64,000 nucleotides of DNA from a virus. This document shows positions 703 through 57,240 of this stretch, piece after piece. Each line of letters opens with the position of its first letter. Position 1 is the first letter of the stretch. The stretch covers positions 91,246 to 155,245 of IMG/VR virus record IMGVR_UViG_3300009506_000001. One strand, given 5' to 3'. The position numbers and the translations under genes were made by a program. The notes below the pieces were generated by a model that did not search any database, had not been told where the DNA came from, and saw only the letters and a program-made list of their open reading frames with translations.

Positions 703-1407
703 TTATACCTTTGGAAGTACGTAGACTCCTAGACCACTGACCTTGACGAGCATGGTGCCTTTTCCGCCGACGCTGAAATGATCAACAGAACTATCCTTAA
801 ACAGAGCCAGGAGTGTCTTTACAGGGTACTTATACGTAAATTTACCTTCGCTTCCCTCTGTGAGCGGTGTTGCTTTTTCAGCAAACTGGTGCTCAAACGT
901 GTCATTGTTCACGTCAACCAGCGAGAAATGCACTCCGTCTCCGTCGCTGTGAAACTCGACAAGGTCAGAGCCCATTGCAGCAGCACCTTTCTGGAGTAGC
1001 TTGACAGCCTCTGCTGTGACATCTACACGAGCACTTGGTTCGTCATTAATGACACGAGGAGCACGGATCGTTGTTGGGTTGGCACACCGATAATCAACTT
1101 TGGTGCCTTTTGCTTTCAGTGTTAGGGACCGAACGAATCCTTTGTCGCTGCCATCCATCACAGCCTCGACTGCAAACCCGTCTAGGTCTTTAACAACATC
1201 CAGACGCTGTAGAAATACATCTGTACGATTCAGGCCAATCGAGCCAATTTCCAATTCAGGGACCTCCTTTTCAAGAAGAACGACTGTGTGGTTATCGGCA
1301 AGGCCTCGTACACTTTCAGGATCGATGATGATGCTGTCAATATCAACGATACCAGCAGTGTGGACAACATTCTGAATAAAGGAAAGGGTTTCATCGGATA
1401 GTTTCAT
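703..1407 (-). CDS. DNA polymerase sliding clamp (gp45-like)
   Basis: 234 aa, MKLS..TL start, clamp-like size, located near PolB. Confidence 0.7.
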   Translation of the reverse strand: MKLSDETLSFIQNVVHTAGIVDIDSIIIDPESVRGLADNHTVVLLEKEVPELEIGSIGLNRTDVFLQRLDVVKDLDGFAVEAVMDGSDKGFVRSLTLKAKGTKVDYRCANPTTIRAPRVINDEPSARVDVTAEAVKLLQKGAAAMGSDLVEFHSDGDGVHFSLVDVNNDTFEHQFAEKATPLTEGSEGKFTYKYPVKTLLALFKDSSVDHFSVGGKGTMLVKVSGLGVYVLPKV

Positions 1408-8505: not shown

Positions 8506-9606
8506 TTAACGACGCAATGCCTTCAGAAGCATGTCAGCAAGTTCCATCTTGGAGATGGATGTGTTGCCAATTCCCTTGCCACTGACCTCTTCCATTTCAG
8601 GCTCAGCGTTGATATCAATGTCTTCGGGCTTAGCCTCAACGTTGATGTCAACGTCTTCAGCAGGGGCACTTCCAAGACCTTTGCCTTCATCGGATGCAAG
8701 ATCGTGCTTATATTTTGCTAGTTTTGCGATCTGCTTAGATTCTTTCTCGGCTTCCTTCTTGTCATTGTAGTAATCTTCCATGTCAAGAATTTCTTCCTCC
8801 TGCTTCACTTTCTCAGCAGCTTGACGAGCCGTTGCCTCAGCAGCACGGGCTTCTGCTTCGGCCTTGCGGGCCTCTGCGTCAGCTTTCATCATATCGATGA
8901 CCTGTGTTAGAGCAGATGCAGCAGCTTCTTCACCGGGAGGCTCAGCACCAAGGTCAGCAACCTCACCTGTGTCGGCTGTCATATCCTCACCTTCGCCCGG
9001 TACAGGGGCTTCACCTTCAGCAGGTGCCTCAGCTCCAGCATTCATGTCAACACCTTCGCCAGCACCGCCCTCAACGTTGATCTCCTCTTCCTCGTCTTCG
9101 GGAATATCTCCCCACTCAACGTTGATGATATCAAACTGCTTTCTTAGCTTCCAAAGAACCTCAGCAATTTCGATTGAATCGTTTTCGTCGTCCTCGTCCT
9201 CGTCCGCACCGGCAAGTGCAGACTGAAGTGCCTGTGCGAAACTGTCTGCCTGGTCTTCAGGAACCCAAACCTTTACCATTGACCCTTTTTCATCTTCTAG
9301 GACAAACCCTGCACTATCATCACCCTTTTCTTCGGCAGCCTTTGCAGCAGTCTTTAGTTTGGCGATAACATCATCACGGTCGAAGTCACTCTCTTCGGCC
9401 TCATTAAGGAAACTGCTGAACTGAAACCCTTCACCGACAAGATGGAAGGAATAAGGCAACCCTACTGCACGTCGGTGCACCTTTCTTTTCTTGCTCTTTT
9501 TCTTTGTTTTTGAGCCGAGAGGTTCACGAAATCCTGCGATAGCACCAGCAGATGTGACGCCTGCAGCACCACCAGCAGCCGTTTCTTTGATGAGTTCTTT
9601 TAGCAT
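8506..9606 (-). CDS. acidic hypothetical virion/scaffold-like protein
   Basis: 366 aa, E/D/A-rich; TAAATA late-promoter motif at 9638-9643. Confidence 0.65.
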   Translation of the reverse strand: MLKELIKETAAGGAAGVTSAGAIAGFREPLGSKTKKKSKKRKVHRRAVGLPYSFHLVGEGFQFSSFLNEAEESDFDRDDVIAKLKTAAKAAEEKGDDSAGFVLEDEKGSMVKVWVPEDQADSFAQALQSALAGADEDEDDENDSIEIAEVLWKLRKQFDIINVEWGDIPEDEEEEINVEGGAGEGVDMNAGAEAPAEGEAPVPGEGEDMTADTGEVADLGAEPPGEEAAASALTQVIDMMKADAEARKAEAEARAAEATARQAAEKVKQEEEILDMEDYYNDKKEAEKESKQIAKLAKYKHDLASDEGKGLGSAPAEDVDINVEAKPEDIDINAEPEMEEVSGKGIGNTSISKMELADMLLKALRR

Positions 9607-10359: not shown

Positions 10360-11688
10360 TCAACCGTTGATCGATGACATCAATCCTAACAAATTGTTAC
10401 CACTGTTATCTATGTCAGAATCTTCTGGTGTTTCCTTTGGTTTTCCGCCCTTTGGTGGTAAGTTAAGATTATTTGGGTCTGTGATTCGTAGTGTGACTTT
10501 GTTATAGTCGAGGTAGATTGTTTGACCAACACCATCGCTGGAACGTGTTTTGAGAAACTTCAAAGCCATCTCACCCTTTGCTCTCATTGCGTCTGTCATT
10601 AGGATGCTAACGTAAACGTCAGTGGTATTGATCTTACTGATACCACCAGCAATGTGACTGTGATTGACTTCCGTTGCAGTAACAGCACCACGATTCTGCT
10701 GGGATGCTGTAATACCAACAGCGTTGTAGTCGTTTGCTATTTCACGAAGCTCTTCTGATGCTCGCTTATCTTTCTCGTGGATATTGTCGGCTGAGATCTT
10801 CTCATTTGAACCCATCAGATCGATGTAGTCGATCGCAATAACGTCCGGGATGAATCCATTCTTCAACTCGAACTCTTTTAGGTATGCTCGAATCTGGTTG
10901 CTTGTTGCACCCTGTGACATACGCTTGATGAACAACGAGCCAGACTTATCACCCGCACAGTTAATGCGGTGTGCAACTTCGTCCTTTTGCCTCTGCCAGT
11001 CTCTCGTACCAACGCCTGCGACCATTGCAATGTAGCGTTGGTAAATCATTTCCTCAGACAACTCTAGACTAATATAGAGAGCGTTTAGTCCACGCTCGAC
11101 ATAGTTGAGAGCTAGGTTTGCCATAACGATCGACTTACCGCCACCTGAGTTAGCAGATAGTAGGAGCAACTGCTTACGAGCAAGACCACCACCAAGAACG
11201 TCATCAAATTCTTTCCAGCCAGTTGGCTCGTAAATTTCTGCGGTTAAAAGACGTTCAAGAGTCTTATTGACATCGTCAAATAAACTCGTACCCAAATCTT
11301 TCTGGAGGGAGATCAAGAGGGCATTCGTAACAAGGGTTTGAATGCCAGGAAACTCTTTCTCATTGCCGCTCTCATAAATTTCGGCGGCGTTCATTATAGC
11401 CTTTCTTAGGGCTTTGTCACGACAAAACCTTTCAACCTCGTTGGAACAGTAATCAACTTTGTCTCGGGTTATATTGTCGTGGAGAGCAAACGCCTGGCCT
11501 GTTTCAGCGGCGATCTGTTGAGGTGTAGGTAGACTATTGTAGTCATTGTAGTACTCCTGAATAAACTTGACAGAGTCACGAGCCTCTGGGTCAAAGTATT
11601 CAGGTTGAATAATTGTAGTACACTTTGCGAAGACGTCGACCGACGATAGCATGTACTCAATAAGCAAGATTTGCTTTTTCAGATTCAT
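10360..11688 (-). CDS. replicative DnaB-like helicase (gp41-like)
   Basis: Walker A ANSGGGKS, YISLELSE, IDYIDLM and TASQQNR. Confidence 0.92.
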   Translation of the reverse strand: MNLKKQILLIEYMLSSVDVFAKCTTIIQPEYFDPEARDSVKFIQEYYNDYNSLPTPQQIAAETGQAFALHDNITRDKVDYCSNEVERFCRDKALRKAIMNAAEIYESGNEKEFPGIQTLVTNALLISLQKDLGTSLFDDVNKTLERLLTAEIYEPTGWKEFDDVLGGGLARKQLLLLSANSGGGKSIVMANLALNYVERGLNALYISLELSEEMIYQRYIAMVAGVGTRDWQRQKDEVAHRINCAGDKSGSLFIKRMSQGATSNQIRAYLKEFELKNGFIPDVIAIDYIDLMGSNEKISADNIHEKDKRASEELREIANDYNAVGITASQQNRGAVTATEVNHSHIAGGISKINTTDVYVSILMTDAMRAKGEMALKFLKTRSSDGVGQTIYLDYNKVTLRITDPNNLNLPPKGGKPKETPEDSDIDNSGNNLLGLMSSING

Positions 11689-56277: not shown

Positions 56278-57187
56278 TTCGGGCTGAGAATACACCGTCA
56301 GTATTCGTACCTTTGAAGGATTATCCCATCACCTGCTACAGCTAGGGTTCCCTTCGTTTCCACTCCGTCAAACAGAGTCTACGAACAAGGTTGCCTTTTT
56401 AAAGTGGTGGCGGTTCCACTGTCCACTGATGCTACTCTGCAGTCTATCTACCGTCAACCTTGCGGGCTGTAAAGGCTTGCGGGCCACCGTGCGACTTTCT
56501 ACAAATGCCTTCCGCCTTGCGAGCTTCGGACACCTTTATTCACCGTAGTGTAAAGAATTAAACCTCTTTAACACCAGTGCGGCCGCAACTTTGCGTTTTC
56601 GTTTAAAGATAGTGGGTTTGAATCCACAGCCTTCTGTTCCTAAAACAGACGCTCTACATTGAGCTATATCAACCAACCAAGATGTGTGCGGCCAGTAGTT
56701 TCGTGAGTTTTTGGCCCACGAGATGCTACACACCTCATGTCTATTTTCCTTGCGGGAAATATGACCGTTCTTCAAGACTGATGGGCAAGCATTTATCCTA
56801 CACTCGTTGTATGAGTGGTCTCAGGACTTACCCGACAACCTTTCAAACTGCGACGACGCCCTTGATTGCAGTCTCGGACTATCCGTCACTACCCTTTACC
56901 TCTTACGACTCGTTAGCTTGGTATGGTTAGGAGGGGGTACCAGCCCTCTCTTGAATCCCCTGTTCCCGCACGTGGCGGCAGGTCAGATTCTGCTCTTTCC
57001 CTAACACACTAACTTCACCGTTAAGACCGCCGCTCTTATCAACGATCTCCTGTCACCAGGGAGGTGAGGCTTGCATAGGAATACCTCCGAAGAGGTGCAG
57101 GTTAAGTTGGATCCCCTGCTTTCCCCTAGTCACCTAGGTTTATGCCCCTATGCGGCAATTCTGTAGTAATACTCTCTACACTTGATT
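56278..57187 (-). ncRNA. large structured ncRNA, GOLLD-like
   Basis: ~900 nt with no credible ORF; own TTGACT-N16-TATAGT promoter; many GCAA/TTCG hairpins; 3' end CGGTGTATTCTCAGCCC; embedded tRNA-like domain; family call is from recollection of GOLLD features. Confidence 0.6.
56604..56673 (-). pseudogene. degenerate tRNA-like element inside the large ncRNA
   Basis: D-arm GCTC/GAGC, anticodon arm TCTGT-TTTAGGA-ACAGA, GTGG-ATTCAAAC-CCAC T-arm; acceptor only partly paired; no CCA. Confidence 0.65.
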
Positions 57188-57240
57188 CGTCTTACTATAC
57201 AGATGTTCTCTCAAAAGTCAACACCTGTATTTGAAATTTA

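Follow-up and report, generated by a model that had tools for sequence, protein, structure and literature searches.

The locus considered here lies in a stretch of 64,000 nucleotides (nt), hereafter the window, that forms the end of a 155-kb virus record of IMG/VR (IMGVR_UViG_3300009506_000001, positions 91,246 to 155,245; CheckV completeness 44%). Between a caspase-like gene (58603-57506) and a gene for an HNH endonuclease (56257-55802) it shows, at 57505-56258, short open reading frames only, in mixed frames, and we found that this non-coding stretch carries a full-length gene for an RNA of the GOLLD family, the variable linker of which holds a tRNA-derived cloverleaf with a broken acceptor stem. 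The window also contains five tRNA genes, a permuted transfer-messenger RNA (tmRNA) and an RNase P RNA-like gene. The source is a large phage that is not in culture, and its GOLLD gene is part of an island of genes for tRNAs, tmRNA and RNase P RNA. An earlier note, made from the letters alone, had proposed a kilobase-scale non-coding stretch coding for a GOLLD-like giant RNA at this place, and both parts of that proposal are borne out.

The features of the gene, in the direction of transcription, are as follows; relatives are referred to by their phage names or by locus numbers with the prefix L.

57221-57194, minus strand: promoter-like site of the sigma-70 type, TTGACT-16-TATAGT, matching 10/12 consensus positions
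57187-56281, minus strand: full-length GOLLD RNA gene, ~907 nt, defined by Rfam RF02032 for the 3' 456 nt and by the promoter and the alignment of relatives for the 5' extent
57187-56737, minus strand: GOLLD 5' domain, divergent and outside the Rfam model (alignment A2)
57138-57125, minus strand: conserved GNRA-capped hairpin of the 5' domain, CCTAG-GTGA-CTAGG (A2 columns 231-246)
56758-56746, minus strand: hairpin TTCC-CGCAAG-GGAA at the end of the 5' domain, with which the series of four CGCAAG hairpins begins
56736-56281, minus strand: conserved GOLLD 3' domain (Rfam RF02032)
56736-56679, minus strand: hairpin that opens the 3' domain and has an internal bulge of 9 nt (model positions 1-62 in the Rfam alignment)
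56694-56687, minus strand: TGGCCGCA, 5' strand of the pseudoknot helix that closes the linker; it falls within the bulge of the hairpin just named
56673-56604, minus strand: tRNA-derived cloverleaf (pseudo-tRNA) in the variable linker (Rfam tRNA model RF00005)
56644-56638, minus strand: anticodon loop TTTAGGA of the cloverleaf, anticodon UAG
56597-56589, minus strand: conserved linker motif AACGCAAAG just ahead of the closing helix, kept in the subgroup (Rfam consensus AAAGCAAAAG)
56587-56580, minus strand: 3' strand of the linker-closing pseudoknot helix, TGCGGCCG, after a conserved CAAAG motif
56423-56404, minus strand: subgroup signature GACAGTGGAACCGCCACCAC, common to XacN1, L004, L005, L007 and others
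56296-56281, minus strand: conserved 3'-terminal hairpin GGTGTATTCTCAGCCC (Rfam alignment, model positions ~400-416)

Architecture and limits of the GOLLD RNA

The search with the Rfam GOLLD model by cmsearch, which the earlier note had called for, returned a match of 202.3 bits against a gathering cut-off of 150 (E = 1.2e-55) that spans model positions 1-416 of 416, while ROOL, the other large RNA considered, has no Rfam match in the window. The RNA is thus, with next to no doubt, a member of the known GOLLD family and not a new kind of RNA; its 3' end is set here at the end of the Rfam model. The repeated C-GCAA-G hairpins that had been pointed out at this locus are present: the GOLLD strand has four CGCAAG hairpins within 56459-56754, and these align with GNRA-capped hairpins of the GOLLD consensus. 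Window-wide the hexamer occurs at chance level (31 copies vs 29.4 expected), but four copies within 300 nt of one strand compare with an expectation of 0.07 (Poisson p ~1e-6).

Upstream of the Rfam model, the 5' ~450 nt are a divergent, covarying GOLLD 5' domain. A less conserved 5' region has been published for GOLLD (PMC12286853), and at the BLAST level there is almost no similarity among the GOLLD 5' halves of the lineages. RNAalifold, used on an alignment of eight lineages including the window (A2), predicts 22 pairs in three helices, namely a GNRA hairpin, a long-range helix enclosing ~180 nt and another hairpin; compensatory changes are seen at 16/22 pairs, and none of the three helices is missing from the window. 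The pairing of the hairpin at 57138-57125 is kept in A2 with a different stem sequence in every lineage, and the CGCAAG of the last hairpin of the domain recurs at the same relative position in XacN1, L004, L007, L022 and L048. The z-score of single-sequence folding is only -1.4 (20 shuffles); the structural evidence rests on covariation and not on folding energy.

The relatives used in these comparisons were retrieved from viral and metagenome contigs by the subgroup signature GACAGTGGAANNGCCACCAC and a second motif, the signature at 56423-56404 serving as a search pattern, and were confirmed by Rfam (172-227 bits) or by nhmmer profiles. Two family-wide sequence patterns yielded one locus each, and the matches of the subgroup motif in L006, L008-L010 and L015 are chance occurrences in coding DNA. 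Among the relatives are unannotated GOLLD genes of cultured phages, i.e. the Xanthomonas phages XacN1 (AP018399.1; 227 bits on Rfam) and X1 (OQ427096.1; subgroup profile, E = 4e-56) and the Sinorhizobium phage Phosso (PV764938.1; subgroup profile, E = 4e-41); the Xanthomonas phage BUDD (ON758385.1) has a GOLLD match by BLAST only. A separate observation concerns the search itself: when reverse-complemented, the motif GTGTANTCTCAGCC...GGATTAT from the GOLLD 3' end matches the conserved core that characterises the thiamine pyrophosphate (TPP) riboswitch, and a scan of genome contigs with the 3'-end motif (L054-L073) gave TPP riboswitches at 12/20 loci and a single GOLLD, that of Mycobacterium sp. 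IS-836 (L056). This overlap calls for caution in motif-based searches for GOLLD.

The 5' end of the gene was placed by its promoter and by the relatives. The earlier note had given the RNA a promoter of its own at 57221-57194; the site is indeed present and its position is backed by relatives, but the match taken alone is not significant, as the region has six promoter-like sites against 3.3 +/- 1.9 expected. From it we predict a transcription start near 57187, ~6 nt ahead of a conserved GUGUAG (57181-57176). In L004, L005 and L022 promoter-like boxes fall on the corresponding columns of the alignment, and in L005, L022 and L033 a type I hammerhead lies between the promoter and the GOLLD 5' end. 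The hammerhead of L022 (1027-1073, minus strand) scores 40.4 bits with Rfam RF00163 against a cut-off of 34, those of L005 and L033 were found by our own parser, and all three are predicted to cleave just ahead of the conserved UG(G)UGUAG. Because both the boxes of the relatives and their hammerhead cleavage sites fall at this place, the promoter call is supported by position. No hammerhead core is found between promoter and GOLLD 5' end in the window, and L004 and L048 are likewise without a ribozyme. From these sequence comparisons, promoter and ribozyme would appear to be two routes to the same GOLLD 5' end in different lineages, a point that is new here; that either route leads to the same GUGUAG boundary in turn supports the assignment of the promoter and the placing of the 5' end near 57187. 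The three papers found to name both GOLLD and the hammerhead do not link the two.

Several further observations concern ribozymes and tRNAs beside the GOLLD genes of relatives. XacN1 (L002) and L041 have an unconfirmed variant hammerhead-like core, CTGACGAT(T)-stem-GAAAC...GTC. In L022 a second hammerhead-like element at ~1202-1270 (minus strand), with an Rfam Hammerhead_3 score of 29.3 bits at 1239-1302 that is under the cut-off of 48.5, has its predicted cleavage exactly at position +1 of a free-standing tRNA (1131-1201, 66 bits); if the prediction is true, a ribozyme would do the job of RNase P at the 5' end of that tRNA. In several relatives a tRNA gene is found within ~80 nt past GOLLD.

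The linker, its closing helix and the cloverleaf

The variable linker follows the first hairpin of the 3' domain. The earlier note had seen the cloverleaf flanked by the complementary GGCCGCA/TGCGGCC and had taken these for a stem closing around the tRNA-like domain. The stem is a real, covarying helix of 8 base pairs (bp) in the window: by its register-free longest complement it reaches 7-8 bp in 10/10 GOLLDs, with eight different sequences, whereas mismatched partners average 4.4 bp. Such register-free tests replaced fixed-column pair counts on the MAFFT alignment A3, which has one-base register slips. The closing helix is not specific to the tRNA, however, as the tRNA-less GOLLDs XacN1, L041 and L003 carry it as well; we therefore regard it as a general GOLLD pseudoknot, which is probably among the P stems already described.

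The cloverleaf itself scores 52.3 bits with RF00005 against a cut-off of 29 and is aligned to the unpaired linker of RF02032 (model positions ~60-145), confirming the claim of a tRNA-like domain in the variable region of a GOLLD RNA. ARAGORN at default settings does not call it and reports a tRNA-Leu(tag) only at a lowered threshold. The D stem (4/4 pairs) and the anticodon stem (5/5) are complete and the T stem has 4/5 pairs, the exception being A53.C61. The D-loop AATGTA has a single G and lacks the GG of G18-G19, and the T-loop TTCAAA is of 6 nt, one short, and closed by A.C rather than by G53-C61. The acceptor stem, rightly described as broken in the earlier note, begins with G1.U72, U2.U71 and U3.U70 before four Watson-Crick pairs follow; it is paired at 5/7 positions with one G-C pair in all. 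At the 3' end a discriminator A is followed by AAC (AAAC in place of CCA), so that no CCA is encoded. Since the acceptor top is frayed, the CCA missing, the D-loop without GG and the T-loop short, the element could not mature into a chargeable tRNA, and it is quite probably not a functional tRNA. A CCA-adding enzyme of the host could supply the CCA only after release of the element.

As to its source, the anticodon loop TTTAGGA is one change from the tRNA-Pro loop TTTGGGA, as had been remarked, but is equally one change from the loop TTTAGGT of the phage's own tRNA-Leu(UAG), and the likeness to proline has for that reason no special weight. As evidence of an origin from tRNA-Pro the likeness was rejected: the leucine loop is as near and the stems resemble neither tRNA. 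The closest element is the linker cloverleaf of L127, with the same D stem and a near-identical T stem.

A comparison was made over 13 independent lineages that have a cloverleaf at the same linker position. The paired positions amount to 62/91 in the acceptor stem, 50/52 in the D stem, 65/65 in the anticodon stem and 63/65 in the T stem, i.e. 29/91 acceptor positions are unpaired against 4/182 in the other three stems (Fisher p = 6e-12). The anticodon stem is perfect in all 13 lineages with 12 different stem sequences. The anticodon loops all differ, the anticodons being UAG, GCU, UAU, UCA, CUU, UGU, AUU, UCU, GCA, UCC, AUC and a second CUU on another stem, with one loop of 8 nt. A CCA is encoded by 2/13 embedded elements vs 41/41 free-standing tRNAs of the same loci (p = 8e-10), the latter being class I tRNAs with 6-7 acceptor pairs and a mean of 4.3 G-C pairs. 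A figure of 0/8 lineages with CCA, from a first sample, was dropped, wider sampling having revealed a spectrum.

In eleven of the 13 lineages the linker element is frayed like that of the window, and L033 is without any acceptor helix; correspondingly, the Rfam tRNA alignment clips the acceptor to model positions 3-68 in L007 and L022 and to 8-63 in L033. A good acceptor followed by a discriminator and CCA is found only in L127 and L131. The element of L131 (GOLLD at 8812-9296, plus strand) is like a tRNA-Lys(CUU), with 6/7 acceptor pairs and T-CCA; that of L127 (GOLLD at 10630-11095, minus strand) has a perfect, A/U-rich acceptor of 7 bp and C-CCA, together with a T-loop TGCGAAT and a D-loop without GG. 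At the other end of the spectrum L080 has only an anticodon-arm-like hairpin left. L007 and L022 share an identical frayed 5' acceptor strand, AACTTTG, and differ in the D, anticodon and T stems by compensatory changes, a pattern pointing to selection on the arms at a time when the acceptor was already frayed. Core identity is 0.61 among the embedded elements and 0.55 between these and free tRNAs, which does not prove a common descent of the former.

The distribution among the cultured phages is uneven: Phosso has a linker cloverleaf that is frayed and CCA-less like that of the window, and the linkers of XacN1 and X1 have none. In the classic GOLLDs (~55) the 3' domain measures 360-426 nt, too little to accommodate a tRNA.

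Genes and other elements around the GOLLD gene

The other elements of the island are the following.

58888-58636, minus strand: reduced RNase P RNA-like gene (Rfam RNaseP_bact_a, 60.9 bits, E = 5e-18)
56257-55802, minus strand: HNH endonuclease gene (Pfam E = 6.6e-7; PHROG 589)
55738-55493, minus strand: bS21, a phage-encoded ribosomal protein (Pfam E = 6.8e-18; PHROG 21469)
54354-54276, minus strand: tRNA with anticodon CUA, labelled 'Pyl' by ARAGORN
33751-33422, minus strand: circularly permuted tmRNA (Rfam RF04321, 114 bits)

The neighbouring RNase P RNA named in the earlier note finds support in a match that covers the full model (positions 1-367) in just 253 nt and that is below the gathering score of 100; the gene lies ~1.4 kb upstream of the GOLLD promoter and ~2 kb from the cloverleaf. 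The permuted tmRNA accompanies GOLLD also in XacN1, L004, L012, L014, L022 and L033. Past the terminator of the caspase-like gene (57469-57446), and ahead of the GOLLD promoter, comes a separate stretch of ~170 nt (57447-57241, minus strand), with a promoter-like site (57447-57419) and a terminator-like hairpin (57304-57285) of its own, which the alignment with relatives places outside GOLLD.

Directly downstream of GOLLD are the HNH and bS21 genes. The start codon of the HNH gene is 24 nt past the GOLLD 3' end and no terminator-like site was found between the two; given this arrangement, GOLLD and the downstream HNH and bS21 genes may be co-transcribed. Homologues of the HNH, bS21 and caspase-like neighbours are absent from the GOLLD flanks of the relatives, and a conserved protein partner beside GOLLD was rejected on this ground.

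A proposed tethered tRNA body and its alternatives

The explanation that we favour, and consider probable, is that of a complete GOLLD gene with a linker that holds a tethered, non-chargeable cloverleaf derived from a tRNA. The structure of the env-38 GOLLD has been solved as a 14-mer nanocage (Kretsch et al. 2025, PMC12286853) in which the linker is inside, tRNAs being sometimes present in the linker (PMC12286853), and self-assembly into an RNA-only cage is known only for env-38 and for the 3' domain of S. agalactiae (PMC12286853, PMC12990946). By analogy with env-38, the RNA of the window would assemble into a multimeric hollow cage with the linker pointing inward, each chain thus contributing one tethered tRNA-shaped body. 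Judging from the 13 lineages, two of which still have a good acceptor and CCA, the cloverleaf would descend from a real, releasable linker tRNA; with L127 as its nearest relative, the window element most likely does so, and it would have lost its acceptor top, CCA and parts of its elbow after that descent. The body, and the anticodon arm above all, would have been kept by selection after the acceptor decayed, and the element would stay covalently tethered and act by its shape, not as a stored tRNA awaiting release.

These steps differ in strength. Selection on the cloverleaf body is a reasonably probable reading of the sequence comparison, as the stems other than the acceptor are kept far better than neutral decay allows, which suggests that the tRNA body still serves GOLLD. 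That in this clade the linker cloverleaf is a dedicated, unchargeable tRNA-shaped body kept by selection after acceptor loss is possible, at somewhat less than even chances. We put forward only tentatively, and as rather unlikely, that it is a multivalent tethered bait or occupant for a factor recognising tRNA bodies.

Several points weigh against this reading. The cloverleaf is wholly lost in XacN1, X1 and L041, and is hence dispensable for GOLLD. The copy in the window is among the most decayed, with its GG-less D-loop and 6-nt T-loop closed by A.C, and may be a relic in the process of being lost in this phage. The control tRNAs were picked by ARAGORN and are thus biased to good acceptors, a bias that leaves the contrast in CCA unaffected. 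That the embedded elements go back to one origin is unproven, the ends and the intactness of the transcript are, like the cage, inferred, and the factor that would bind the cloverleaf is putative. A docking site for the anticodon loop inside GOLLD was sought and rejected: complements of the loop belonging to each lineage fall into a common alignment bin in no more than two lineages, vs 2-4 in mismatched controls.

The strongest competitor in kind is plain decay, in which a dead tRNA gene drifts to deletion without any role in GOLLD. The absence of the element from XacN1, X1, L041 and the classic GOLLDs would fit this, as would the linker of X1, where only AACTTTG is left as an apparent deletion scar, the defects of the window copy in both elbow loops and the undetected expression of a mycobacterial pseudo-tRNA (PMC6582537). 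Decay should, however, strike all stems alike, in conflict with the concentration of unpaired positions in the acceptor (29/91 vs 4/182, p = 6e-12); nor does it account for an anticodon stem that is perfect in 13 lineages with 12 stem sequences, or for L007 and L022, where, with the acceptor already frayed, compensatory changes restored three stems. We therefore hold a neutral relic to be unlikely. It is still harder to see in the element a stored tRNA, i.e. a real precursor the maturation of which is blocked by the cage until this opens, in the sense of the published ideas of 'inhibited storage' (PMC12990946) and 'covalently linked tRNAs' (PMC12286853). The elements of L127 and L131 do look releasable, having a good acceptor and CCA, that of the window is closest to the one of L127, and the phage's own RNase P RNA is ~2 kb away. 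But the window element has U.U at 2-71 and 3-70, one G-C pair and no CCA where the free-standing tRNAs all encode it, a D-loop without GG and a defective T-loop; its UAG anticodon, on a body with a short variable arm, matches none of the standard leucine tRNAs, and a normal tRNA-Leu(UAG) is encoded by the phage in any case. With eleven of the 13 lineages frayed alike and L033 devoid of an acceptor helix, storage appears very improbable.

Another alternative gives the anticodon arm a defensive role: tethered, it would soak up an anticodon nuclease or another tRNA-directed effector, its loop being tuned in each lineage. The arm is indeed the best kept part (65/65 pairs) and the only one that L080 retains. 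Anticodon-loop nucleases recognise their targets without needing the acceptor end. Loops that differ from lineage to lineage are what an arms race would produce, and the loop of the window is one base from the loop of the phage's own tRNA-Leu(UAG). Such variation is, however, equally expected without constraint, a linker inside a closed cage (PMC12286853) would restrict the access of proteins, and no defence or anti-defence gene is conserved beside GOLLD in the relatives; we regard a decoy of this kind as decidedly unlikely. The earlier note had offered a processing signal or a decoy for anticodon nucleases as possible roles of the tRNA mimic. As far as the sequences go, a conserved RNase P processing signal is argued against by the frayed acceptor, the missing CCA and the one acceptor-less lineage, and the 13 different loops argue against a decoy for one single anticodon-specific nuclease, lineage-specific decoys being unaffected by this.

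To our knowledge GOLLD has had no known function since its description in 2009, and the cage structure of 2025 has made it more pressing to ask whether the cage holds anything, and what. In 11/13 lineages of the present subgroup the linker 'tRNA' cannot be both releasable and chargeable, yet its body is kept, which argues against simple storage of tRNAs and suggests that what matters is the tRNA shape, the anticodon arm above all. If the tethered-body reading is true, each chain would supply one tRNA body, exposed or enclosed by the cage as bait or occupant for a factor that reads such bodies, in contradiction to 'inhibited storage' for these phages, and Phosso, with a cloverleaf, against XacN1 and X1, with none, would be a direct experimental handle on GOLLD function. 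The availability of cultured phages with and without the cloverleaf, which makes the question testable at the bench, is new here, as is the quantified pattern of frayed acceptor and intact body. GOLLD, its cage, the variable linker and linker tRNAs are already published (PMC12286853, PMC12990946), as is a mycobacterial pseudo-tRNA next to an HNH gene (PMC6582537).

Comparison with known systems

Among the known systems the env-38 GOLLD is like the RNA of the window in the full-length model match, the conserved 3' domain, the structured and divergent ~450-nt 5' domain, the variable linker after the first 3'-domain hairpin, the GNRA-capped hairpins and the setting in a phage tRNA island; it differs in the linker, which is a disordered 42-nt loop in env-38 and holds a cloverleaf in the window. 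The 5'-domain sequence of the window is unrelated at the BLAST level to those of other lineages. The subgroup of the window consists of large phages, the cultured relatives infecting Xanthomonas and Sinorhizobium, and all its members have the motif GACAGTGGAANNGCCACCAC. XacN1, X1 and Phosso share both the GOLLD subgroup and the tRNA/tmRNA islands with the window, XacN1 differing in the variant hammerhead-like core upstream, of which the window has no counterpart. ROOL (RF03087), another large RNA of phages or prophages that is met close to tRNA islands, likewise builds a nanocage, with a disordered linker inside (PMC12286853), but is unrelated in sequence and secondary structure.

A parallel of another kind is the mycobacterial GOLLD in a tRNA array, which has a pseudo-tRNA inside, an HNH gene adjoining and no detected expression (Behra et al. 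2019, PMC6582537); an embedded tRNA in a mycobacterial GOLLD is attributed to Morgado et al. 2020, as cited in PMC12990946. The tRNA array, the inner tRNA-like gene and the HNH endonuclease gene beside it are shared with the window, whereas the host phylum and the GOLLD subgroup are different, and the HNH adjacency is not conserved among the window's own relatives. In the one Mycobacterium GOLLD fetched here (L056) the 3' domain contains no match to the tRNA model.

Beyond GOLLD, tRNA-shaped folds that are recognised by their shape occur within larger RNAs in the tRNA-like domain of tmRNA, the 3' tRNA-like structures of plant viruses and mascRNA. All of these keep a functional acceptor end, be it for aminoacylation or for cutting by RNase P; the element of the window, in contrast, has lost the acceptor and kept the anticodon, D and T arms.

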